From Patellaria atrata CBS 101060 (Eukaryota), in assembly GCA_010093705.1 (NCBI GenBank), contig MU006092.1:564623-628622 (forward strand): a stretch of DNA of 64,000 bases, written 5' to 3'. Positions 41,101-59,208 of the stretch are shown in pieces. The first letter of the stretch is position 1; each line of letters begins with the position of its first letter. Both the position numbers and the translations under genes were made by a program. The notes beneath the pieces are model-generated. The model did not search any database and was not told where the DNA came from. It was given only the letters and a program-made list of their open reading frames with translations.

Positions 41101-42159
41101 TAACGGTTGCTTAATGGACTGGATGATCCGGAAGCGTGAATCGCACGTTTACTATCAGGATTCCGGGTTCATGGATTCTCGGAATCGGTAAGACACGTTA
41201 TGAAACGTGAAGGACTGAAGGAGCTGAATGTCTTTATTTCGTTGTTAATGTCTAACTCACCGTTTCTATGGACGTTCTGCTCCTCAGGGCCATTTATTCT
41301 TTTTCTCTTCCTCCTACTTTAAGATTATATCCTAGATTCTGAAGAGTTTAAGGAAGCAATTTATATGCCAGTATGCCATGTGCGGAGTTAGATCCAAGGG
41401 ATCGATTGTGTGATTGAAGAAGTTTATGGTGGTCGAATAGGGAAAGCTTTGGGATAGATTAAAGTTATTGGCGGATAAATTCCCGTCGTGGCCGGCAACC
41501 CATCGATCCACCAAAGTCCCAAGGGTTCCTATGAGCAGAACGCCCAGGAGCCCCAAAACAATCTAAACAGCCCACTAGGCGGCGAATGGATAATTGGAAA
41601 GCCGAGAAAGAGGGGAGATTCTCCTAGATCACAGAAAGAACAATTCCGCGTTGCAACTTCATTCCGAACGTCAGGCCTGCGGCTAAGAGTCGCTCAATTT
41701 GATGCTCTCTCGGCATTGTTCTATGGCCTCCTCGAGCTGTAACATCCCAATTTCTCTGCGTTGTCGATACCTTACTTAATAAGTCAGCTCTCCTGAAGAT
41801 ACCGTTGAGGTTGACATTCCTGCATGACTGTACGCTACCCTTCGGAGAGCATGCCCTCCTGTCTAACAATCAGCAGCAATTCACTTGCTCTACGCTCCGA
41901 TCCAATCCGCACCCCAACCTTGTATCGTATATCTCTATTGTAAATATACCCTCCAGTACCCTGACCACCGGCAACGTAACTGTTAGAAATTGCTCGTCAT
42001 TCCCATCACTGGAAATCCAGGAAGCACTTCAAACATCTTTGGAAATGCGAACAACAGTCGCAGACACCTGTCAGCTGAATACCGCGCGCCGAATTCGCGT
42101 AGAGACTGAACTACGCATCAACGGCTTCAACACGTACGGATAAGGAACGCCGCATTTGC

Positions 42160-44196
42160 ATGGTTCAATATACTCAACAATTTCACATGGCGACTCAGCT
42201 GATTAGCGAAATAGCTACACCCACCCGTCTAAAGGGGGGCGAGGTAGTCCAGGTCGAAGAGATTTCTTACTCAGAGAAACCGCGCGTGTGTATCTTGTAT
42301 AATGAGGGTGAAGAGAGCATAGTCGGATTGATAGCGGAGATATTGGGTCAGGATGTGGCACTTGTGAATACTGTTCAAGACGATTGGGACAGCTCAGATG
42401 GAAAGGTTCTAGGTATCCCGGGCATATGTGTGGGGTCACATCTAGAGAAAAGACAAAAAACAAGGACTATCATTAACACTCACTGTGTGGACGGCGACTA
42501 CACTCGAAATGAGTACCTCAGCAATAGCTCAGACTACGAATACCTTTACACACGGAGCCCGTACCTGAGGAGAGACCTAACTAGGTTCCTGTCGTTCATC
42601 TTAGGCCAGAATAACCCTCATCGAGACCTAACCAATAAGACTAGGACAACACTGATATCGACCACCTTTCCAGATGTCCATGCAGCGTTACCTAACCTTG
42701 ATATTCTCTCCGTTGGTGCCGATGCGGTCGAAATCCGCGTCGATTTGTTGAAAGAGCCGCTCCCAGATGGCTCCATGAGCCAGGTCCCTAGCATTGAATA
42801 TGTTGGGGAGCAGGTTATGATTCTGCGGCAACGGACCGAGCTGCCTATCATTTACACGACAAGATGTACCAACGAAAACGGCCGATTCCCTATGGAAGAT
42901 CCGCAGTTATTTCTGAAATATCTCTTCAAAGCAATCCAGTGGGGCTGTGAGTACGTCGATGTCGAGCTTTGGTTACCAGAAGATATTAGACGAACCTTAG
43001 CAGAGCGTAAAGGCAACAGTAAAATTATTTCTGCATTCCATGACTTTTCTGGAACCTTCAAGTGGACCTCTGGCGAAGCTCACGAGCTTTTCAAAAAAGG
43101 TGCCGTCTATGGAGATGTCGTTAAAATGATCGCACTTGTTACTTCAACTCAGGAAAACTACGAACTGGAGTATTTCAGGTCTTTAGTTCAAGCACACTAT
43201 AAGCACCCCCGATTCTCTGGCCTAAATATGGGTCCTATGGGTCAATTATCCCGAACCGTTAACAAGATCTTCACACCAATAACGCATCCGCTTCTCCCGA
43301 TGATAGCTGCTCCAGGTCAACTCAGCGCTGCAGAAATCAACCAAGCTCTTCATACTATGGGTCAAATGCCCAAACTCTATATCTATGGAATTGGCAGCTT
43401 CCGAAAAGCAACACAGGGAATGTTCTTTGAAAAATGCTTCAACGAATTGAGTCTTCCTCACCAGTTTATATACGTTGAGAAGGGACCAAAAGGCTCAGTT
43501 GACTTACTCATGAAACGACCAAATTTCGGCGGTGCATATATCAACCCACCAGTATCAGCAGCAACGGCCCCTTTACCTAATTTGTCTGAGGCGGCTAGAG
43601 CTATCGGTCAAGTCGACACCGTTTTGCTTCGCTCAGATTCAACGCAGCCATCTTTCATCGGGGATAATGCTACATGGAAGGGCATCAGGGCCACTTTGAG
43701 TCGGGATTTTGTTCCGTCTGCATATTCAGGCCGCGCTGCCTTGATACTGGCCAACGCAGAATCTGATGCCGCCGCTGCAATTTTCGCTCTGAAAAGCCTT
43801 GGCATCGGTCCCATTTACACCATCGGGTTCAAGACTCAGGGATACCTTGCTTCCGAAGTACAGCCAGTGAGATTAGTAGAGGACGCGAAGATGCTCCAAC
43901 ATCCCTTCGTAATTATATCTGCATTGCCCGCAGAGAAGTCGATGCTTGTGGGACCTTTACTGAAACACTATAGCGATAAGAAGAGCCCTCCAGGTTCTGG
44001 TGGAAAGGTCTTCGTTGACTTAGCTTCGGGATCTAGAAAGGTTGATATCTTATCGACAGCGGCCCTCGCAGGTTGGACAGCATACGGGATCGCGGATGTG
44101 ACAGCATGGACAACGGTTGAAACTATGAGATTGCTTGTCGGACAGAACGTGCCATATGATTTCGTACGATTGGCATCGGGTCGAAGTCTGTACTGA
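42160..44196 (+). CDS. AROM-derived protein: degenerate shikimate-kinase-like region + type I 3-dehydroquinase + degenerate shikimate-dehydrogenase-like domain (QutR/QA-1S-like architecture)
   Basis: 678 aa, single exon. DHQase I motifs AVEIRVDLL, PIIYTTR..ENGRF, YVDVEL, IISAFHDF, GDVVKMI, NMGPMGQLSR, AAPGQL. SDH-like remnants NFGGA, AIGQVDT, GDNATWKGI. Confidence 0.9.
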   Translation: MVQYTQQFHMATQLISEIATPTRLKGGEVVQVEEISYSEKPRVCILYNEGEESIVGLIAEILGQDVALVNTVQDDWDSSDGKVLGIPGICVGSHLEKRQKTRTIINTHCVDGDYTRNEYLSNSSDYEYLYTRSPYLRRDLTRFLSFILGQNNPHRDLTNKTRTTLISTTFPDVHAALPNLDILSVGADAVEIRVDLLKEPLPDGSMSQVPSIEYVGEQVMILRQRTELPIIYTTRCTNENGRFPMEDPQLFLKYLFKAIQWGCEYVDVELWLPEDIRRTLAERKGNSKIISAFHDFSGTFKWTSGEAHELFKKGAVYGDVVKMIALVTSTQENYELEYFRSLVQAHYKHPRFSGLNMGPMGQLSRTVNKIFTPITHPLLPMIAAPGQLSAAEINQALHTMGQMPKLYIYGIGSFRKATQGMFFEKCFNELSLPHQFIYVEKGPKGSVDLLMKRPNFGGAYINPPVSAATAPLPNLSEAARAIGQVDTVLLRSDSTQPSFIGDNATWKGIRATLSRDFVPSAYSGRAALILANAESDAAAAIFALKSLGIGPIYTIGFKTQGYLASEVQPVRLVEDAKMLQHPFVIISALPAEKSMLVGPLLKHYSDKKSPPGSGGKVFVDLASGSRKVDILSTAALAGWTAYGIADVTAWTTVETMRLLVGQNVPYDFVRLASGRSLY

Positions 44197-45465: not shown

Positions 45466-48210
45466 TCGTCTTCCTCAACGACGGATGAGTAACAATGAAC
45501 CACGAGAGTCTATGAATTGCAAAAGCTGTCGGAAACGAAAGGTAGACAATCCTATCAGGTTCTTGCCAAAGTAAATCACTCAGCCCAGCTAATAACTTGA
45601 GTATAAGATCAAATGCAATCGTTTACGGCCATGCGAAGCCTGCCAGGTGTTTGCATGTCCATGTGTATACGGTATGTCATCGAAGCCGGAAAAACTCAAA
45701 CACCACTGGAAAATTTTGGTTAATTGATTTTGTTCAAGATGCCGTACCAAAGAAGAGAGGTCCTAAGACGGATGTGCTAGAAGCGCTTCTTAAACGTGTG
45801 GATGGCTTGGAAAAGCGCCTCCATACGGAAGGGAAATCAGATTCCCCTCCCGAAAAAGAACAAGAACACATTGAAGACTTCAACGATCCTCCAAAGAGCG
45901 CTGAATCAGTCCCTCAGAGACCTTTACTCGAAATCGCTCCAAATCCAGACCAAGCGCCTACAATCCTCTCACCATCGGATCCGAGGTAGATCATCTTAAC
46001 GGCACAATTGAACCGTCCTTAACTTACATTCCATACAGTAACTCTGCGCAGATTCCTCCCACTCCAGGTATTCATCCTGGTGTATTGCTAGACATCTATT
46101 TTGCTCGAATTCACGGGAAGCCGTATCACATCTTCGATGAGAATACGGCTCGGCAACGAATTCAGAGCAATCAGCTTCCAGAACACTTGACTTGCGCCAT
46201 CTATGCTATAAGTGCACGGTAATGGTTAAATATTCTCCCATTCACTAGCTACTCGTCTGATCGTCAATAGTTATGCTTCTCAATTCGGTGGTTTCAGCGC
46301 CTCTGTGGAAACAGGCCTCGAATATGCCAACCGTGCTCGCATGGAACTTGACGTTGAGCAGCCATCAATTGAGGGTCTACAAACCCTCTTGCTCTTGACA
46401 CAGGCTTACTTTCAGATGGGTAAAGGAAAGAAAGCGTACATGCTATTGAGTAAGTTCAGAAGCGATCATATATGGAATTTAACTAAAGCATATCCAGCAT
46501 CTGGTATAAGCATGGCCTTTGCGCTTGAGCTTCATCGCGAGTTGCCACAATCCATAAAAATTCACTCTGCGGAAAGAGAGGGAAGGAGAAAGCTGTTTTG
46601 GTCGTGTTACCTATTAGATCGATTTGCAGCATGTGGCTCGAAACGACCCTCCTTAATAACGGACGAGTCCATTGTGTTACGTCTTCCATCCTGGAACATC
46701 CACCCTGGATCTGTACTCATTCAGGGAGACTATTTCCCAAACGGTTCAAACTTGCAGTACATGGGAGGACCTGACACTCGGAATCAAGGTGGTGCTGCGA
46801 TGCTCATAGGAATCGTTAGGATCTTGGGTATCACTAATCGGTATCTTGCTGCCGGTGGTGTTAAGGGAGATTCTCACTTCCCATGGCATTCTCTGTCCAA
46901 CTTATCGAAGATCCGACAAGAACTCGATATCTGGATATCAGACACCCAAGAGACCTTCGCATCACTGGAGACCCTCTTTGGACAACCTGATAGTACCGTT
47001 CTAGTTCTAAGTAAACTCATTTATCACTTGATACACTGTCTTATATATCGACCGTTTTTACCTATTGATCTCACAGAACTAGCTGGCACTGGACAACATC
47101 AATCCTGGCAGATCGAATCTACCAACCTTTGCTTTCTTCACGCAAACGCAATCGCTGAGCTTGTCGAGATTGGTAAGGCTTCTGCATCTATCCCAGATTG
47201 GCCTGCTTTCGTTGCCTATTGTATCTGTACGGCCGGTACCATTCACGTCCATGGCGCATACTATCGAGGTCGAGAAGGAGAGGTCTTTTCCGCTAGTGCA
47301 GAGTTTCTGGCAAGGGAGATGCAACAGCTTATGGATCTACGTTTCACTTGGGCTGGTGTTCAACACCAACGTGATACTCTTCAAAAGATTTACTTGTGTC
47401 ATTCTGAGCTAGTCAGAGCTCTCACTGCAAACCCTGTGCGGTTCTCACCAGGTTTCCAGTTGGAAGATTTCTTTGATCGATATCCAGGACAATCATTCAA
47501 TGCAGCGCACGTCATATTCTTTGACGTCGTAACGGATCCGCTACTTGAAAGGTAAGTCGACCATGGCCTCAGAATATAGATCTTCCTTAGCTAATTGCCG
47601 TAGTCCGTCATACAACGTGGAGTCTCGCAGTAACATCTACAGAGGCCCAAATGTCAGCAATATCCAAACCCAGGCCCAACCCCAAACTCATCCGACTTCC
47701 GTTCCACAACAGCGACCAGTAAAACCATTACCCTCGTCAGACGGTACTAGAAAACGCCGAGGTACAAAAACTGCACAAATAGCTATCCCTCCTACCCTCA
47801 AGCAATTTGCCACAACGAAAGCACTAAATAGGGACGTATCAGAACCGCTTTCGGGCCTATCTCAGCAGAATTCGCAACCAAAACAAGAGCATCTCTCACT
47901 CAGTACGTCTGAATCGCATGAACTTTCACTCCCAGCGGACTTTCCAGCCTTACCACCATTTTCGCCTAACTTTGCCTTGACCGGTCTCGACACAGATACG
48001 GTCGGCCAAGGCGATATCGGGGATACTCTGGTCAACGTTAGTTCAGCGTACGAGCAGCAAGGTACGCCCGGTGCGGCGAGCGCCTCGGGGTCTGCACACA
48101 CTGAGCCTGACAAGGATCCTTTCCTCAGTCTCCTGGAACAGCTGGCGGAGAACGAACATTCGCAAGGCGGGCCGAGCGAACTGGATTTCTTCCTTGGTGG
48201 CCAAACATAA
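45440..48210 (+). CDS. Zn(II)2Cys6 transcription factor with fungal-specific TF domain, multi-exon
   Basis: Spliced N-terminus [65 protein letters not shown]. Middle region [18 protein letters not shown]. Acidic C-terminus [20 protein letters not shown]. Confidence 0.93.
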
Positions 48211-51596: not shown

Positions 51597-51665
51597 TGAC
51601 GCAGTGAGGAGTGACGCAGTGAGGAGTGACGCAGTGAGGAGTGACGCAGTGAGGAGTGACTCAGT
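51597..51665. repeat. 15-bp minisatellite (TGACGCAGTGAGGAG) x4 ending in TGACTCAGT
   Basis: Four identical units at 51597-51656 and a variant partial unit at 51657-51665. Confidence 0.97.
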
Positions 51666-51780
51666 TCCTGTCCTCTCGAACCTTCAATTGCTGCGCCTAC
51701 AAGGGGCCTGATCCAGCTCGTACACCTCCATTTCATAGCAATGGGCTGGACTTCCACGCCGCCGTACTGCGAAAACTACC

Positions 51781-54543
51781 ATGGAGTCGACTGACGAGGG
51801 TTCCGAGTCGAGACAGGATGTAGTCCTCGCCGTGACAATCGCTTTCTTGGCTTGCTCGACTGTTTTTGTGACTTTGAGACTCATATCACGCTTTGCGATT
51901 GTGCGCAAAGTCAATTGGGACGACTATTTTATGATATTTGCATGGGTAGGTTGAGACCCTGTTCTACGGTGGTGAAAATGATGCTGATATGTCCTCTAGT
52001 TGATATCGTTTGGACTATCTTTTGCCATATGTTATGGGACCTCTAAAGGCCTTGGACGACATCAGTATGATGTTCCGCATGAGTGGAACGCAGCTTTACG
52101 ACGATCTGAATATACATTTTCTGTTCTTTATGTCAGTCCTTTCTCATGTCCTGTCTCCCATTGTTTGACCCCTACTAATTCTCCGCAGAATCCAGCCTTG
52201 ATGGCAACGAAGACATCAATTCTAATCTTCTTTTTGTCATTGTCCAAGTCTCAGAGGATCTTCCGATGGGCCACGTATTCTACCCTCGTCGTCGTCAATG
52301 CGGCCGGGTTCGCCCTGACGATACTCAATATAATCCAATGTAGGCCACTTGGTGCTGCATTCAAAACACCAATCCCAGAATCTGCGACCTGTACAGATAT
52401 AGTTACTTTATACCTTTCCTCCGCCCCTGTCAATATCATTACTGACTTGGCAATCCTAATATTACCGATGCCTATCTTAACTAGTATGAGATTACCGAAG
52501 AAGCAAAAGGCAATCTTAGTAGTCACGTTTGGATTTGGTATCTTTGTAGCAGTGGTGGATGTCGTCCGAATAGCCTATCTCCAACAAGCTGCCGAACTTC
52601 GACTGAGGAACATCCAGGACATATCCTCTAATGGTGACACGAAGAACGCGGAAAGGAACGACTTTTCGTGGTACGCATCCTACACTTTTATGTTTTCCGC
52701 TATTGAGGTACATGTCGGTATTATGTGCGCCTGCGTTCCTGCCATGAAACCGCTATTTTCCAGGTATATGCCTCGACTCATTCGCGATGATAGCGATCCA
52801 GAAACTTCCTTTGGCAGCGCGTTTGGACCCGCAATGGATTCGATCAAAGCTGCTCAACGGAGGTCTCCCCCTGATCTTGACCCGATACCTAGTCCAGAAC
52901 CTACTCGTGGCACCAATACGGAAGACCAGGTAGATATGGTCGATTTTCTAACAACACCCGATATGCAGACTCTACCACCCGTGTTTGACTCGACCCAAAC
53001 ACAAAGGACAAACACGACTAGACTTACTATGACGGAAACACCGACTTTCTTCGATTTCGTTAATGTGAAAAAGAGGAAGAGCATGTTGCAGATGACCAAC
53101 AAGGAATCCTACTTTCCGGTTGCGATGGTAACTATATTATTCTTCGTCTGGGGCTTTGCGTACGGCCTCTTGGATGTTCTCAATTCTCAATTCGTGACAG
53201 TTTCACATATGTCGGTTGGTCAGGCCATCGGAATCCATAGCTCCTACTTTGGAGGGTATCTTGTCGCCTGCTTAACTTTCGGACGACTGGTACTCAAGCA
53301 TTGGGGGTTCAAAGCATGCTATATTGTCGGTCTTTGTGTATACGGATGCGGAACTTTGGTATTTTGGCCTTCTGCGGTTCTCACATCCTTTCCGGCATTC
53401 CTTGTCTCAAACTTCATTGTGGGTATGGGCCTTTCAACGTTGGAAATCTCCGCGAATCTTTTCATTACCTTGTGCGGACCTCCTCAATGGGCTGAGGTAC
53501 GGCTCAACATTTCTCAAGGAATTCAAGCAATCGGGACGGTCGTATCACCGTTGCTTGCACAGAAAGTCCTATTCAAGGCAGATGCATCATCTCTTATCCA
53601 AGTCCAATGGACCTACCTCGGTATATGCTTCTTCACCATCCTGTTAGCCCTGGGATTCTACTACGTCCCCCTCCCAGAAGCCACAGACGACGAATTAGAA
53701 CGCAGCGCAGACCGATGCGACGGGGCAAACACAGCCCGCATTGGTGGTGTCCAGGTGGTCACGATATCACTCGTTCTCGGGGTGATGAGCCAATTCCTCT
53801 ACGTCGGTGGCCAGGAAGCCATTTCCACTTCTTTCTCCGAATATCTCGCCGTCGTGAAGCCATCCATCAACCCCGTTAATCACCAAGCAATCGGCCACTC
53901 CGTCTTCGCTATCAGCCGATTCATCGCCGCCGCCTTGAATCTTTGGTTCCTCCAGCGCCACATCCTCACCTTCTTCTACCTTGGCACCATCGCCTTTGCG
54001 GCCGCAGCGATGAATTTTAAAGGAGATATCCCCGCCGCGATGGTCATTCTGCTGTATTTCTTCGAAGGTCCGATATTCATTCTGGTCTTTGCGATGGCGA
54101 TAAGAGGACTAGGTCGGCGGACGAAGGATGGCAGCGCGTGGCTTACGGCCGCGATAAGCGGTGGTGCGTTTATTCCTCCGATCATGCATGCGGTTAGTGA
54201 GAATAAGGGGGTCCAGTATTCGTACTGTGTTGTTGTGGCGGTTTTTGCGTTTGGTAGTTTACTGCCGTTGTATTATCAGGTGGTGCCGAGGGCGAGGAAG
54301 TTGGTGGATGATCCGCCCTTGGCCGGGGATTGTTATGAGCATGGGATGGAGGAGGATGCAGCAGCTGAGGAGGGAGAGGGTCGGGGTCAGGAGGAAGTGG
54401 AACAAATAAGGGATGAGGATGAAGCGCCCAGGTCGCCGGCGAGTGATAAGAGATTCATGAAGATTGTGCACACCATCTCGAAGAGGAGGAAAGATACGGT
54501 GTCCACAGAGCTAGGGGAGGGGAGTTCTTCCGGGCACAGTTGA
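51781..54543 (+). CDS. Fusion protein: Pth11-like (fungal rhodopsin-domain) 7TM receptor + FucP/glucose-galactose-type MFS transporter
   Basis: Introns 51946-51999 and 52132-52188. N-half: LRLISRF..WDDY, GLGRH, KTSILIFF, QCRP, NIITDLAILILPMP, IEVHVGIMCACVPAMKPL. C-half: FFVWGFAYGLLDVLN, FIVGMGLSTLEISAN, RLNISQGIQAIG, FLYVGGQE, FEGPIF, ISGGA. No stop between the halves. Confidence 0.92.
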
Positions 54544-54982
54544 GTCTTTATTTTTAGCAAGGGAATAGCGTGGTGTTAGGAGTTTATGCATGCGAGGAAA
54601 ATACATGGGACTGGCGGCTTTGTTTGTCTTGCTGTTTATGTGGTGGATGAGATGTACATAGGCTTTGATACCCTGTATGTATGGAAGAAGAGACGCTGTG
54701 GAGTAGAGTGTGAATAGATTATTGCTTCTGACTACTGTACACCAATAAGAATTTATATATTGATGTCTAGCTCAACAGCAAAATACTAATGTCCTTGAGT
54801 CCCCTTTCTAGTAATTTTGGGGTAATCCTATGAGGTCTTGCTAGACCTTACTTCTGTAATTTTATTCTAACCTCAACGCTTGATTCACCTTTCACCGCAA
54901 ATCACACTTAAATTCGGGTCTAGAGGAATCCAACAAAAGAGATGCCAATCATTCTACCGACTCGATTAAAACGAAAAAAAAA

Positions 54983-55350
54983 GGGAGCTGTTATGTTGAC
55001 AACCCCTTCCCCCTAAACAAGTGTCTTCCACTTGCGGGTTATGAACAAACAAACCGTAACTGCTTTCTATATATCCCAGAGATCCGTGACCTAGTGGTGA
55101 GAAATTTCCACCACACTGATCAGACTATAGAACCAACCGGTCCAGAGATGGTCGAACCTGAGAGAGGGGGATAATGCCCTCAAGCAGAAGTACCACACCG
55201 CTCCATGGATCTTGATTCGTGGGGAGCGGGTGGGAACTGTTTTGCTTTTTAAATTCTTATTTTTTTGTTTTTGTTACTTTTTTAAAAAGCTTTTTAGGAA
55301 CTTTTTAGAAAAGGGCGTCAAGGAACGGGGTTGTCAAAATAACAACTCCC
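54983..55350. mobile_element. Probable MITE (non-autonomous DNA transposon), about 368 bp with 24-bp terminal inverted repeats
   Basis: Left GGGAGCTGTTATGTTGACAACCCC (54983-55006), right GGGGTTGTCAAAATAACAACTCCC (55327-55350): 22/24 inverted match. A-rich flanks, no coding capacity. Confidence 0.7.
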
Positions 55351-55963
55351 CCCCCCAAAACAAAAATAAAAAAAAAAAAAAAGTCTTGACGCAAGATATT
55401 TCCATTTTTCTCACCTGGAGTCATTACAAATCAAATATTTCTTCGGTGTTAAACAGTTCTCTTCCACTAAATGAGCGATAATTCTATTTCCCGTTCGAGT
55501 ACTCCATGCGAATTATTTTCTAGTAGTCTGGTAAGTTAAAGTAAAGGTCAGCATGTGCGACGTCCTGGAGATATGGGCTCTAGCAGGCCGTGTATGAGGA
55601 TGTCACGATGACGGATATGTAGGGTTCTATATCTCCGGAGCTTCGTCTACACTCGACTACACTCCTTCCATCATTATTCTCTTGACCAAGGAAGGTGATG
55701 AGGCGGATATACGGCTGAGGGTAGGTTTTGACTGTTTCGGGGATGAGTTGCAATATCCGAGGAAGATATGATTTCTTCATTAGATGACGAAAGTATATAA
55801 AGAAAAGAGCTAGGGCACAAGGTTTAGATATCAGCATCATTATTTCTTTCGTGGTCATTGAGTCTATATAAACATAATCACCGTATCTTCTTACAATACT
55901 GATTGCTATATATCAACCATCGCTGCATCTTTGTCTCTTGAACTTTCGTATATCCACCACGAA

Positions 55964-57192
55964 ATGTCTCCCACACTCCCAACCCGCCGTCTAGGCAAGA
56001 ATGGCCCTTTGGTTCCTGCGATGGGATTAGGCCTCATGGGACTGAGGTACGTGGATCACCCCTTTCCACCCATTCTCCATTCTTCGAGGATTCAAAATAA
56101 TGATTACAGCGCCTTCTATGGGCCTCCGAAACCAGATAATGAGCGCTTCGCCCTCCTGGATGCAGCGTATGACCGTGGAGAGCGATTCTGGGATACTGGT
56201 TCGTATCCTTTCTCCATTCCTCCTTTCCCCTCTCCTTCCCATCCCCCCTATCCCCAACGCTACCACCACTCTTCGAAAGTCCCTAACCAACCCCCCCCCC
56301 CAAAGCCGACATGTACGCCGACTCCGAAGACCTCCTCGGCCGCTACTTCACCGCCCACCCTCAAAAGCGCGCACACATCTTCCTCGCGACAAAATTCGGC
56401 AACAAGCGTGCCCCCGACGGGACCACCAGCATCGACAGCAGTCCCACCTACTGCGTCACCGCCCTCGCCAACTCCCTCAAGCGCCTCAACCTCCCCGCAG
56501 TAGACCTCTACTACGTGCACCGCCTCGACGCCCGCACGCCAGTCGAACACACAATGCGCACCATGGCCCGCCTCCGCGACGAGGGCAAGTTCAAATACAT
56601 AGGCCTGTCCGAATGTTCCGCCGCCTCGCTCCGGCGCGCGAGTAAAGTCGTTCATGTCGATGCCGTGCAGGTCGAATACAGCCCCTTCGCGCTAGACATC
56701 GAGACCGAGCAGACCGGGCTCCTGGCCGCGGCCCGCGACCTCGGTACCGCGATCGTGGCTTACGCGCCCCTGGGACGCGGTATGTTGACCGGGGCACTCC
56801 GCTCGCCGGATGAGTTCGCGCCAGACGATTTCCGCGCTTTCGCGCCGCGGTTCTCGCGAGAGAATTTCCCGAAAAATGCTGTGCTGGCGGAGAAGATTGC
56901 TGATGTCGCAAGGAGGAAGGGGGTTTCGCCCGCGCAACTGGTGCTGGCGTGGGTGATGAAGCAGGGGGAGGATGTGATTCCCATCCCTGGGACGACGGAT
57001 GTGGGGCGCTTGGAGGAGAATCTGGGGGCGCTTTGGGTGGAGGTTACGGAGGGGGAGGAGGAAGAAATTAGGAGGGCGTGTGAGGAGGTTAGCGTTGTGG
57101 GGGAGAGGTATCCGAAGCAGTTTTTAGATGCTTTGTTTGCGGATACGCCTGAGGAAGAGGAGATGAAGAAGAAGAAGGAGGAGGGGGAGTGA
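55964..57192 (+). CDS. Aldo-keto reductase (YakC/pyridoxal-reductase-like), 3 exons
   Basis: LPTRRLGKNGP..MGLGLMGL|SAFYG, FWDT|ADMY, IFLATKFG, DLYYVHR, IGLSE, QVEYSPF, AYAPLGRG, IPIPGT. Confidence 0.95.
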
Positions 57193-57309: not shown

Positions 57310-58569
57310 TCACCTCCCAGCGTTCGCACTCGTCAAGACCCCCACCTTCTCCCACGCCCCCTTAACGCTCAAAGCAACAGACTCCCCATAAAGCATCCTC
57401 GCCATCTCCACCGTGACCTTCGCAAACCCCGCAAAATCCACCCTCGACCCGATCTTCCCCCCGGTAAGCGTCTTATACCAAATCTGTCCGGGCTTCTCCC
57501 AGCTATTCCCCCCCAACGCCATAGCAACGAGGTAAAACGCATGATTCGGGATGCCGGAATACAGATGGACGCCGCCGTAATCGTTATCCGCGTCGTCGGG
57601 GAGGGGCCTATACCCCGCCATAGTAGCGGGCTGGGGATCCCTTCCCAGGATCTCATCATCGTACGCCGTCCCCGGGGCCTTGAGACTGCGCAACGCGGCC
57701 CCCCTTCTCGCGACGGGAAATAGCGTCTGACCTAGCAACCAATCCGCGGTGGCCGACGTCTGACGAAAATGCCACTGCTCGGCCATGCACGCGAAAACGT
57801 CGGACACAGACTCGTTCAGGGCCCCGCTCTGCCCGCTGTACTCGAGCCCCGCGGTATACTGCGTGACGGCGTGGGTGAGCTCGTGGGCGACGACGTCGAG
57901 GGAATCGGTGAAGGCGTCGAAGTAGATGCCGTCGCCGTCGCCGAAGATCATGCGCGTGCCGTCCCAGAGCGCGTTGTTGAAGTTGCGCTCGTAGTGCACA
58001 CTGCCGAGGAGCGCGAGGCCGTTGTTGTCGAGGCTGTTGCGCCCGAAGACGCTGAGGTAGAAGTTGTATGTGATGCCGAGGGCGTCGTAGCAGTTGTTGA
58101 TGGAGCGGTCGACGACGCGGGCGGAGCCTTCGCGGCGGGCGAGCGTGCCGGGAAGGGAAGACCGGTTGTTGCAGGTGTAGATTGCGCGGGTTAGGGTCGT
58201 GGTTTTAGTTGCGGCGGCGAGGATGGATTGTTCTTTGCGGGCGTTGCGGACGTCTTCGGCGAGGTGGAGGGCTTCTGTTGCGCGGTCTTTGACGCTTTGA
58301 GGGGCTTTTGGCGCTCTTGCTACGTGGGAGAACACGTGTGGTGGGAGGAATCCCGATGCTGGGTTGATTGGGGAAACGACGGTCTTGCGGAAGGTATGGA
58401 CACCGTGAGCTGCGTTCAATGCTGCTTGAGCTCCAGCGCGGGTATCGTCATGTGCGTTAGGAGCATTGGCAATGTTCACGAGAGTGAAAGGAGCGATGAA
58501 ACCACAAGAACGTCCTGCGTGGCTGCAGGACTGTGAGGGGATTGAGATATCTTCGAAAGAGGTAGACAT
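57310..58569 (-). CDS. Peptidase M4 (thermolysin family), protealysin-like zinc metalloprotease
   Basis: NNALWDG..MIFGDGDG, DVVAHELTH, SGALNESVSD, DYGGVHLYSGIPN. No signal peptide, intronless, likely ATG at 58569. Confidence 0.95.
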   Translation of the reverse strand: MSTSFEDISIPSQSCSHAGRSCGFIAPFTLVNIANAPNAHDDTRAGAQAALNAAHGVHTFRKTVVSPINPASGFLPPHVFSHVARAPKAPQSVKDRATEALHLAEDVRNARKEQSILAAATKTTTLTRAIYTCNNRSSLPGTLARREGSARVVDRSINNCYDALGITYNFYLSVFGRNSLDNNGLALLGSVHYERNFNNALWDGTRMIFGDGDGIYFDAFTDSLDVVAHELTHAVTQYTAGLEYSGQSGALNESVSDVFACMAEQWHFRQTSATADWLLGQTLFPVARRGAALRSLKAPGTAYDDEILGRDPQPATMAGYRPLPDDADNDYGGVHLYSGIPNHAFYLVAMALGGNSWEKPGQIWYKTLTGGKIGSRVDFAGFAKVTVEMARMLYGESVALSVKGAWEKVGVLTSANAGR

Positions 58570-59208
58570 TGGTAGGTGAATGGTAGTGGAAATATGCTCG
58601 TTATACAGATTTAGGTAGGACGAAGGCTGGAAGTATGAATACAATATAGTGATACAGAAGAGTATGGAGATGTGAAGAAGCGATTTTACAGAATTTGAAG
58701 GAATCGACTTGATATAGGAGAGTAGTCCTTCTTCCAATGGCCTTTCTACTACTATCAATATAGTAGAGGTAGGTACTGTACAGCTGACGGACAGCAGGAG
58801 TAGTTCCCTGAACCTGTAATAAAGTCCCTCGAATACAGCGACTCCTGGAAATATGATATGACTTTCTACCTACGTTCTGCCTCAACCTAACAGGTTCGCT
58901 CCTGAAACCCTATAAAAGGTGGAATCTCGATGTGCGGATTGCTCCTGCATATTTGAGTCTTCATCCTATGCCCCGGGAAACTATGTCCTCGACCTCTCGA
59001 GTTTGGGTATATCGCCTGTTGCCCTCCAAAGTAGACCAGAGAGGTAGATCAATCCCAAAATAGAACAAGTCTCCTCCCACCACCTTAGGAGATACCCGTA
59101 GTAGTGTACTTGGAAACGGTGCCTTCGAGAAGAACTGCATCAAAAATATGGATGCAAGTAGACATTATGCCGTAGATAAATTGAATATATCTAATCCGAA
59201 CCTCAACC

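Follow-up and report, generated by a model that had tools for sequence, protein, structure and literature searches.

In filamentous fungi, Pth11-like proteins make up the largest GPCR-like class, and for most of them no ligand is known. To our knowledge, G-protein links within this class have been studied for Pth11 of Magnaporthe oryzae alone. In yeast, Snf3/Rgt2, Gap1, Pho84, and Mep2 embody the idea considered below for the protein described here, namely a transporter fold that is also involved in signaling, and their signaling depends solely on that fold and its tails; we know of none among them with a separate 7TM receptor-like domain. Human GPR155/LYCHOS combines a transporter-fold half, which is PIN-like rather than MFS, with a GPCR-fold domain in one polypeptide, and a DEP domain is also present. 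Published work describes this lysosomal protein as a transporter–GPCR hybrid, or 'transceptor'. On the transporter side, E. coli FucP is an L-fucose:H+ symporter (3O7Q/3O7P, TC 2.A.1.7), and its Asp46 is given as the putative H+ site in the available text of PMC4882079. Aspergillus niger RhtA is an L-rhamnose transporter and, according to the available text of PMC5161314, the first validated FucP-domain transporter from a eukaryote. RhtA, the only validated transporter among fungal members of the fucose:H+ symporter (FHS) family, shows that such members can genuinely import sugars; a second domain is unmentioned in the available text of the same paper. The gene described here joins a Pth11-like 7TM domain to an FHS-type domain, a pairing whose role seems to have been studied by no one. 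In a literature search, with subscription journals and supplements outside its range, none of the papers listed appeared to describe this fusion; a Monascus genome report contains both PF20684 and PF07690.

The gene lies at 51781-54543 of the window, the whole 64,000-nucleotide stretch of Patellaria atrata CBS 101060 DNA that was analysed, and all features given below are on the + strand. It has three exons and encodes a product of about 883 aa; the spliced CDS measures 2649 nt as far as the stop at 54543. In exon 1 (51781-51945, residues 1-55), the start codon and a short extracellular N-terminus are followed by TM1 and the first part of TM2. Its N-terminus is that of the deposited protein P0001, and the PF20684 match there is weak (0.0095). 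Intron 1 (51946-51999, 54 nt, GTAGGT...CTCTAG) is followed by exon 2 (52000-52131, residues 56-99), which completes TM2 and encodes the first part of TM3. Intron 2 (52132-52188, 57 nt, GTCAGT...CCGCAG) is in frame, and the 19 codons that its retention would insert are missing from the homologue consensus. Both introns are spliced out in P0001 at identical splice sites. Exon 3 (52189-54543, residues 100-883 and the stop) encodes the rest of the 7TM domain, the linker, the entire MFS domain, and the C-terminal tail in one frame, and the stretch 52000-54543 contains 847 codons without a stop. The cytoplasmic C-terminal tail and the stop of the open frame occupy 54283-54543. The deposited model diverges at 54397, where a 735-nt intron (54397 to ~55131) leads to another tail that takes the place of the open frame's final 49 codons; a protein end at 54543 is therefore plausible rather than certain. 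Similarity between the open-frame tail and the tails of relatives is weak. Two public DNA read sets, from one sample of one study, cover 51631-55195 with one contig of 3565 nt, in which no differences were seen. The public runs containing this stretch are DNA contigs only, with both introns retained and no splice joints, and are therefore silent on expression. No sugar-catabolic gene was found adjoining the fusion gene.

The preliminary description of this DNA had read it as a Pth11-like 7TM domain, a hydrophilic linker of about 110 aa, and a 12-TM MFS domain in one frame, with neither stop nor intron at the junction. This architecture was borne out, as Pfam finds both domains in the same frame, the linker measures 105 aa, and both introns sit in the 7TM half.

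The Pth11-like 7TM domain spans 51781-52782 (residues 1-297, both introns inside the span) and comprises seven helices and a short helix 8. Its match to PF20684 (Fung_rhodopsin) is strong (4.5e-45, 154.5 bits against a cut-off of 27), with positions 28-237 of the 237-position profile in exons 2-3 and positions 1-25 in exon 1. C150 and C167 in the TM4-TM5 loop are both invariant, and the AF2 models contain seven long helices in this half. Loops 36-47, 116-123, 197-208, and 282-300 are rich in K and R, and the positive-inside rule would thus place the N-terminus outside and the C-terminus inside. The side of these loops makes the linker cytoplasmic, where the N-terminus of an MFS domain must sit, so the predicted topology fits the fusion. 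For the 7TM model of a relative, the best structural match was the yeast GPCR Ste2 (7ad3_B, Z 18.2, rmsd 3.7 over 247 residues), followed by matches of Z 15.5 and lower. LYCHOS chain 8z8z_B also turned up in this structural comparison (Z 12.3), and Foldseek matches of the 7TM model to GPCRs were weak (best E 3.2e-03). These models suggest a GPCR-like, Ste2-like predicted fold, although the same fold by itself shows no function. The likeness to Pth11 comprises PF20684, the seven helices, the conserved loop Cys, and the GPCR-like predicted fold. In contrast to Pth11, the fused protein has no Pfam match to the CFEM domain (PF05730), only 11 residues precede TM1, and the cytoplasmic tail runs into an entire MFS transporter. 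Because CFEM is absent, the 7TM half is termed Pth11-like rather than a Pth11 orthologue, and the fused proteins form their own conserved family across classes, apart from Pth11.

The 12-TM MFS domain occupies 53098-54282 (residues 403-797), and twelve long helices are found there in the AF2 model. PF07690 (MFS_1) is matched barely above its cut-off (7.8e-09, 35.3 against 33.4 bits), and TIGR00885 is matched at 6.7e-44; the NCBIfam matches are fucP, gluP, and NagP. The sole sequence match in the PDB was E. coli FucP (3o7q, 1.2e-30, HMMER), which was also the best fold match in Foldseek (E 1.4e-12, TM 0.79 by target). Foldseek returned at least 500 matches, 338 of them with E <= 0.001, and all among the matches listed were MFS transporters. 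Among characterised MFS families, this half appears closest to FHS (TC 2.A.1.7) by sequence and predicted fold. Identity to FucP is about 24-25%, and the fucP equivalog cut-offs were missed (150.7 against 280.4 bits for TIGR00885, 114.8 against 427 for NF007524), so that the name 'L-fucose permease' is unwarranted. With MFS_1 barely above and the fucP equivalog below cut-off, no substrate was assigned to the MFS half. A further difference from FucP is the 7TM domain fused in front.

The preliminary description had also pointed to a TM1 Asp and a TM4 Glu as counterparts of FucP residues, and the HMMER alignment pairs them in this way. Asp428 (GAT, 53173-53175), the D of GLLDVLN in TM1, aligns with FucP D46, and Glu518 (GAA, 53443-53445), the E of LEISAN in TM4, aligns with E135. 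Acidic residues at these two positions are expected of proton-coupled FHS symporters, and both are present in the protein of the window. W38, N139, R154, and Q159 of FucP are kept as well, and Gln occupies the position of N162. Across 69 diverse members, R537 never varies, and conservation reaches 90% or more at E518, N522, Q542, and Q545. The TM4 position is Glu in 169 of the 178 relatives. The TM1 position is Asp in 125 of them, Asn in 30, and another residue in 23; the Asp is absent from a Leotiomycete/Sordariomycete clade, the Tremellomycetes, Microsporum, Talaromyces, and Trapelia. Since the TM1 Asp is replaced in so many relatives, proton coupling is not family-wide and the family is not uniformly proton-symporter-like. 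The Asp and the full FucP-like residue set are kept in the protein of the window, in all 15 named Dothideomycete relatives examined, and in stand-alone Mycena relatives.

Between helix 8 and TM1 of the MFS domain lies the cytoplasmic linker (52783-53097), which is 105 aa long, hydrophilic (mean hydropathy -0.82), and predicted to be disordered; residues 306-389 have pLDDT below 50 in the AF2 model. It contains two short conserved motifs with the consensus MDFLTTPD and FFDFV. In relatives, none of 52 distinct linkers, 132-207 codons long, is interrupted by a stop, and the chance that a random frame would stay open is 0.0018 to 0.00005 for each. The linker core has dN/dS of 0.01-0.37 in relatives (12 pairs, about 6 of them independent), and these substitution rates point to purifying selection.

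Both domains are present in all 120 of the best database relatives, and 174 of 178 relatives of at least 700 aa span both. Among 80 environmental (metagenome) loci, motifs of both domains were found in one ORF in 67, in separate ORFs in none, and as one motif kind in 13. No poly-A tail was found at 19 ends of metagenome contigs of ~3-3.4 kb with a full-length uninterrupted ORF, and introns are likewise absent from longer genomic contigs belonging to that lineage. Carriers of the fusion come from no fewer than seven Pezizomycotina classes and from Tremellomycetes. The preliminary description had expected it in other fungi under permease names and had made its reading depend on the presence of the fusion in related genomes; it was found across many classes, under the database names 'MFS', 'fucose permease', 'L-fucose permease', and 'MFS monosaccharide transporter-like', with the second domain unmentioned. 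Judged from these sequences, the fusion is real, of old standing, and spread widely among fungi.

In Drechslerella and Mycena, relatives of the MFS half also occur as stand-alone proteins. In an MFS-domain tree of 54 rows, the fused and stand-alone labels need 5 changes, and the starred branches force at least 2. Two 'stand-alone' rows nested among fused ones, P0212 and P0234, are probably cut gene calls; the former bears the linker motif and the latter lies on a 1587-nt contig. A second tree of 34 rows was built by a quick tree search from named rows only, with the long-branched P0189 and P0162 left out. In this tree, the grouping of the classes follows the species tree, and the Tremellomycetes fall inside the fused group of Pezizomycotina (SH-aLRT 92). 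Ascomycota as a single clade was not rejected by the AU test (p 0.218), and horizontal transfer into Tremellomycetes is thus not shown. In the available text of a recent survey, Pth11-related GPCRs are stated to be confined to Pezizomycotina, and counts of Pth11-like proteins are connected with MFS_1 statistically only (PMC12842992). Contrary to the former statement, the PF20684/PF07690 family is also found in Tremellomycetes.

The full-length AF2 model has a pTM of 0.82, with 137 of 882 residues under pLDDT 50. Since such a pTM would otherwise be hard to reach, the two bundles are presumably placed confidently relative to each other, and the model implies that the 7TM and MFS bundles pack together. 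Atlas models of two family clusters superpose with a TM of 0.87 over 797 residues. When the 7TM and MFS bundles were given as separate chains to a complex prediction without alignments, the scores were 0.12 and 0.14 (mark 0.34), values that count on neither side of the question of binding. The observed single frame, conservation in fungi, key residues, two folds, and linker selection are joined by the reading that we favor with moderate confidence. According to this, one gene would give rise to a single membrane protein with 19 helices in about 883 aa, arranged as 7TM, linker, and 12-TM MFS. The MFS half would most likely function in the proton-coupled import of a sugar or deoxy-sugar. The 7TM bundle, which is permanently joined to it, probably lies packed against this half in the membrane, where it would probably control the MFS half through its activity, sorting, or turnover, or report its state.

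Several other readings bear on the same evidence. The preliminary description took the fusion for a covalent receptor-transporter that couples sugar uptake to signaling and hints at a sugar ligand. On this view, the 7TM half could be a true GPCR that senses the same sugar or the MFS cycle and signals via G-alpha, cAMP/PKA, or MAPK. Such a receptor-transporter is in keeping with membership in PF20684, a predicted fold that is GPCR-like and best matched by the fungal GPCR Ste2, the rigid packing implied by the AF2 model, and the 'transceptor' precedent of human GPR155/LYCHOS, and the conserved cytoplasmic linker could hold docking or phosphorylation sites. However, a common 7TM fold is no proof of function, the CFEM domain of Pth11 is absent here, and the G-protein links known to us concern Pth11 alone, so we regard this reading as possible yet improbable. 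It is decidedly unlikely that the MFS half serves for ligand binding alone, as in Snf3/Rgt2, and that the whole protein is a non-transporting receptor. Many relatives without the TM1 Asp do keep the cavity residues E, N, R, Q, and Q, a pattern that fits binding without proton coupling, and the long cytoplasmic linker and tail recall the sensor-type MFS proteins Snf3/Rgt2. For the gene in the window, however, retention of the Asp with the full FucP-like set, as in the named Dothideomycetes and the stand-alone Mycena proteins, makes a transporter the simpler reading.

The single frame may also yield two products, either from an internal promoter or start or because the linker is cleaved, with the halves working independently. 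A Met occurs 12-45 residues upstream of the MFS motif in 45 of the 52 linkers, so an internal start is compatible with the sequence alone; disordered stretches such as this linker are accessible to proteases, and stand-alone relatives of the MFS half are known from Drechslerella and Mycena. In contrast, separate translation would keep neither 132-207 linker codons open and in phase across 52 sequences nor the linker core at its low dN/dS, and the fusion persists through fungal classes. These arguments do not touch cleavage after translation; overall, we consider two products very unlikely. That two adjoining genes were misread as one, by gene merging or misassembly, is scarcely credible. The unusual 3' end of the deposited model is the sole oddity in that direction, and no other support was found. 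The frame is uninterrupted, the 3565-nt DNA contig over the gene is identical, and the fused frame recurs in 67 of 80 environmental loci and in many classes. A merging artefact, dismissed already in the preliminary description, was rejected on these grounds.

The nearest known architectural analogue of the favored 19-helix protein appears to be GPR155/LYCHOS, in which the domain order is opposite to that of the fungal fusion. The only Pfam matches here are PF20684 and PF07690, with no sign of homology to LYCHOS domains, so the sequences suggest a likeness of architecture rather than of descent, and any similarity of function would therefore be convergent. A bolder version, which we hold to be rather doubtful, is that a Ste2-like 7TM bundle docked to an FHS symporter reads its alternating-access cycle and converts sugar or deoxy-sugar flux into an intracellular signal, independently of GPR155/LYCHOS. 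The lineages lacking the Asp, namely Leotiomycetes/Sordariomycetes, Tremellomycetes, and some Eurotiomycetes, would then be pure sensors. If true, such a docked flux-reading hybrid would assign a ligand class to a Pth11-like protein for the first time.

Hundreds of entries called 'fucose permease' or 'MFS general substrate transporter' conceal a second domain. The fungal fusion would be a second, independent hybrid of a GPCR fold and a transporter fold besides human LYCHOS. For the Pth11-like class, a conserved subfamily with a sugar-transporter fold attached leads to a concrete hypothesis, testable in yeast, on both the molecule and the partner involved.

The fused gene begins with an ATG at 51781 on the + strand. 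Exon 1 comprises 55 codons and ends at a GTAGGT donor, which opens a 54-nt intron ending in CTCTAG at 51999. From 52000 to the stop at 54543, 847 codons are open in the + frame. A second intron (52132-52188, + strand; 57 nt, GTCAGT...CCGCAG) lies in frame, so the ORF is unbroken by it. Both junctions are exactly matched by the best database hit, P0001, which is the deposited protein of this gene (882 aa, 98% identical), named 'MFS monosaccharide transporter-like protein [Patellaria atrata CBS 101060]'. With the stop at 54543, the coding sequence has 2649 nt (883 aa). At 51597-51665, 116-184 nt upstream of the start codon, is a tandem repeat with a 15-nt unit, TGACGCAGTGAGGAG (4.6 copies, 98% matches); both public runs have contig breaks at this point.

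Pfam analysis placed Fung_rhodopsin (PF20684; 4.5e-45, 154.5 bits) and then MFS_1 (PF07690; 7.8e-09, 35.3 bits, cut-off 33.4) in one frame. Between them lies a linker of 105 aa (nt 52783-53097, + strand, residues 298-402) with a mean hydropathy of -0.82. In NCBIfam, the MFS half is nearest to fucP (TIGR00885, 6.7e-44), with weaker matches to gluP and NagP. The only solved relatives by sequence are two entries of FucP, the E. coli L-fucose:H+ symporter (3o7q, 1.2e-30). When aligned with FucP, the Asp of GLLDVLN corresponds to D46 and the Glu of LEISAN to E135; the equivalents of W38, N139, R154, and Q159 are kept, and Gln occupies the N162 position.

The full-length protein was modelled with AlphaFold2 from 69 diverse relatives (mean pLDDT 83.8, pTM 0.82). 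The model contains seven long helices (residues 12-281) with a short helix 8, and twelve helices at 403-797; residues 306-389 fall below pLDDT 50. FucP was the top Foldseek match for the MFS part (E 1.4e-12, TM 0.79 by target). The anatomy given in the preliminary description, namely a 7TM domain, a linker, a 12-TM MFS domain, their junction, and the D46 and E135 equivalents, was right in every checkable particular. Loops rich in K and R follow TM1, TM3, TM5, and TM7, and two invariant cysteines lie in the TM4-TM5 loop. By the positive-inside rule, the N-terminus would be outside and the linker cytoplasmic. The N-terminus of an MFS domain must be cytoplasmic, so a 7 + 12 fusion would be topologically sound. 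In total, 137 of the 882 model residues are below pLDDT 50, and the pTM is near the maximum that the ordered part would allow. This value suggests that the bundles of 290 and 400 residues are hardly placed independently in the model. The ESM Atlas models of two family clusters superpose with TM 0.87 over 797 residues.

That the two domains form a real single polypeptide is highly probable. Two public DNA read sets gave one 3565-nt contig over 51631-55195 with zero differences. Among 1661 relatives with E <= 0.001, all of the 120 best carry both Pfam domains, and both are covered by more than 70% in 174 of 178 retrieved relatives with a length of at least 700 aa. In 80 metagenome loci, which were chosen by likeness to the fused query and are not an unbiased census, a single unbroken ORF contains a 7TM motif together with the MFS TM1 motif in 67, and the two occupy separate ORFs in none; only one kind of motif matched the strict patterns in the other 13. 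All 52 distinct linkers, taken between the TM7 and MFS TM1 motifs, were open over their 132-207 codons, and a random frame of this length would be open with a probability of 0.0018 to 0.00005. The linker core shows dN/dS of 0.01-0.37 between close relatives (12 pairs, about six independent). This core is therefore translated in the fused frame and under constraint despite its predicted disorder. The linker contains two short recurring motifs, with the consensus MDFLTTPD and FFDFV. The 120 relatives and 67 loci bear out the earlier view that this is a true fusion and not a gene-merging artefact.

The deposited model leaves the open frame at 54397 through a 735-nt intron to a short exon near 55131, and one further intron and exon complete an alternative tail of 48 residues (region 54397-55350). 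This tail resembles relatives nowhere except in a weak match (E 0.099), and the deposited 3' end may be a gene-prediction artefact. The open-frame tail weakly resembles the tails of relatives in a stretch of the type KRF.K...KRRK, the best E in a small local database being 3.6e-05. Because the deposited model departs and this likeness is weak, the 3' end at 54543 is plausible rather than certain, which leaves the fusion unaffected. In the same region, the base at 55165 is absent from one contig in each public run, and an A-rich low-complexity run (55347-55388) breaks the public-run contigs.

Carriers of the fusion are numerous in Dothideomycetes and also occur in Lecanoromycetes (Pleopsidium, Trapelia), Geoglossomycetes (Geoglossum), Eurotiomycetes (Microsporum, Talaromyces, Aspergillus heteromorphus), Leotiomycetes (Pseudogymnoascus, Halenospora), Sordariomycetes (Berkeleyomyces), and Pezizomycetes (Rhizina). 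Carriers in the basidiomycete class Tremellomycetes (Kwoniella, Cryptococcus depauperatus, Cryptotrichosporon) were unexpected. A recent survey limits Pth11-related GPCRs to Pezizomycotina (PMC12842992). Five Tremellomycete fusion proteins were found (P0150, P0165, P0167, P0169, and P0154, including one from 'Tremellales sp.'), four of them on contigs of 1.3-13.6 Mb. Pfam confirmed both domains in ten distant members, including Rhizina, Microsporum, Talaromyces, Berkeleyomyces, Pseudogymnoascus, three named Tremellomycetes, and the 'Tremellales sp.' protein. The MFS half has stand-alone relatives in Drechslerella (Orbiliomycetes) and Mycena (Agaricales), and a partial model is found in Trichophaea. 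The tree built from named MFS domains recovers the class groupings of the species tree, a pattern consistent with vertical descent within Pezizomycotina. The same tree places the Tremellomycete clade inside the fused Pezizomycotina group (SH-aLRT 92); monophyly of Ascomycota was not rejected by an AU test (p 0.218). The Tremellomycete carriers may reflect either an old fusion followed by losses or one transfer between phyla.

At the FucP D46 position in TM1 (53173-53175), 125 of 178 relatives have D, 30 have N, and 23 another residue; the TM4 Glu is kept in 169. D is present in all 15 named Dothideomycetes, in Pleopsidium, Geoglossum, A. heteromorphus, and Rhizina, and in stand-alone Mycena proteins, a spread suggesting that it is probably ancestral. 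Replacements outside Dothideomycetes are N, S, G, A, or T overall: N in the Leotiomycete/Sordariomycete clade and in Microsporum and Talaromyces, A in Trapelia, and G, S, or N in Tremellomycetes. Equivalents of R154, Q159, and N139 are mostly kept in the clades lacking Asp. Such lineages may be uncoupled carriers or sensors, and the residue pattern points to two functional classes among the fused proteins.

Several neighbouring genes were recorded. An aldo/keto reductase gene (PF00248, 6.8e-55; 55862-57192, +) follows about 1.4 kb downstream in the same orientation. Of 35 distinct metagenome loci whose downstream flank is 2.5 kb or longer, 7 carry a homologue on the same strand 0.85-1.5 kb downstream; one additional locus, with less flank, has it too. 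The two genes could be a co-used pair or simply retained synteny. Upstream, at 42103-44196 (+) and 45546-47555 (+), are a long ORF encoding a type I 3-dehydroquinase domain (PF01487, 6.6e-54) and a gene with a fungal-specific transcription factor domain (PF04082), a pair reminiscent of quinate-pathway regulators. In one metagenome locus (L072), the fused gene is preceded by a homologue with 67% identity to the transcription factor. A thermolysin-type M4 metallopeptidase (PF01447 + PF02868, HELTH motif) occupies one 519-codon frame at 57310-58869 (-).

For the MFS half, the putative FucP proton site is kept, and cavity residues R537, E518, N522, Q542, and Q545 show no or almost no variation in the family. 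Asp46 of FucP has been named as the carboxyl analogous to LacY Glu325 (PMC4882079). A. niger RhtA, a fungal member of the fucose:H+ symporter (FHS) family, is a proven L-rhamnose importer (PMC5161314). On these grounds, this half is read as a proton-coupled importer, which would carry a sugar or deoxy-sugar. The 7TM bundle would be its permanently attached partner, controlling the transporter or reporting its state, and we hold this composite to be somewhat probable. The preliminary description proposed sugar uptake coupled to signalling, with G-protein signalling by the 7TM half. The 7TM part was modelled for a relative with 67% identity, using 20 intron-free sequences (pLDDT 78.1); Foldseek matches of this model were all weak, those among the top 49 being animal GPCRs (best E 3.2e-03). 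The top match in an exhaustive VIA search was Ste2, a class D GPCR of yeast (7ad3_B; Z 18.2 with an rmsd of 3.7 over 247 residues), above the Z of about 14 that helical bundles reach by arrangement alone; designed GPCR-like folds, bitter-taste receptors, and adiponectin receptor 2 followed at 15.5 and below, and dozens of class A receptors at 12-14. The modelled fold is GPCR-like, which does not imply function, and G-protein signalling, with fold and family name as its sole basis, is unlikely. The earlier interpretation as a whole is partly supported.

The protein belongs to PF20684 but is not a Pth11 orthologue, because the CFEM domain is missing; likewise, it belongs to the FHS family, yet is no fucP equivalog (150.7 bits for TIGR00885, far under the cut-off of 280.4). 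Human GPR155/LYCHOS is the closest known architecture. However, the domain order is reversed in the fungal fusion, and Pfam shows an MFS domain, not the transporter type of LYCHOS. Therefore, any functional likeness would be convergent. ESM Atlas clusters of 60, 184, and 97 members are automatically named 'Fungal rhodopsin/Major Facilitator Superfamily domain-containing protein', so the architecture is visible to automatic annotation. Source names of carriers ('MFS...', 'L-fucose permease', 'fucose permease', 'Rhodopsin domain-containing protein') agree with the prediction that similar fusions in other fungi are annotated simply as permeases. Literature searches of openly accessible articles found no paper describing or testing the fusion. 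The fusion is a combination of known kinds, catalogued automatically and unstudied as far as found, and it is readily testable.
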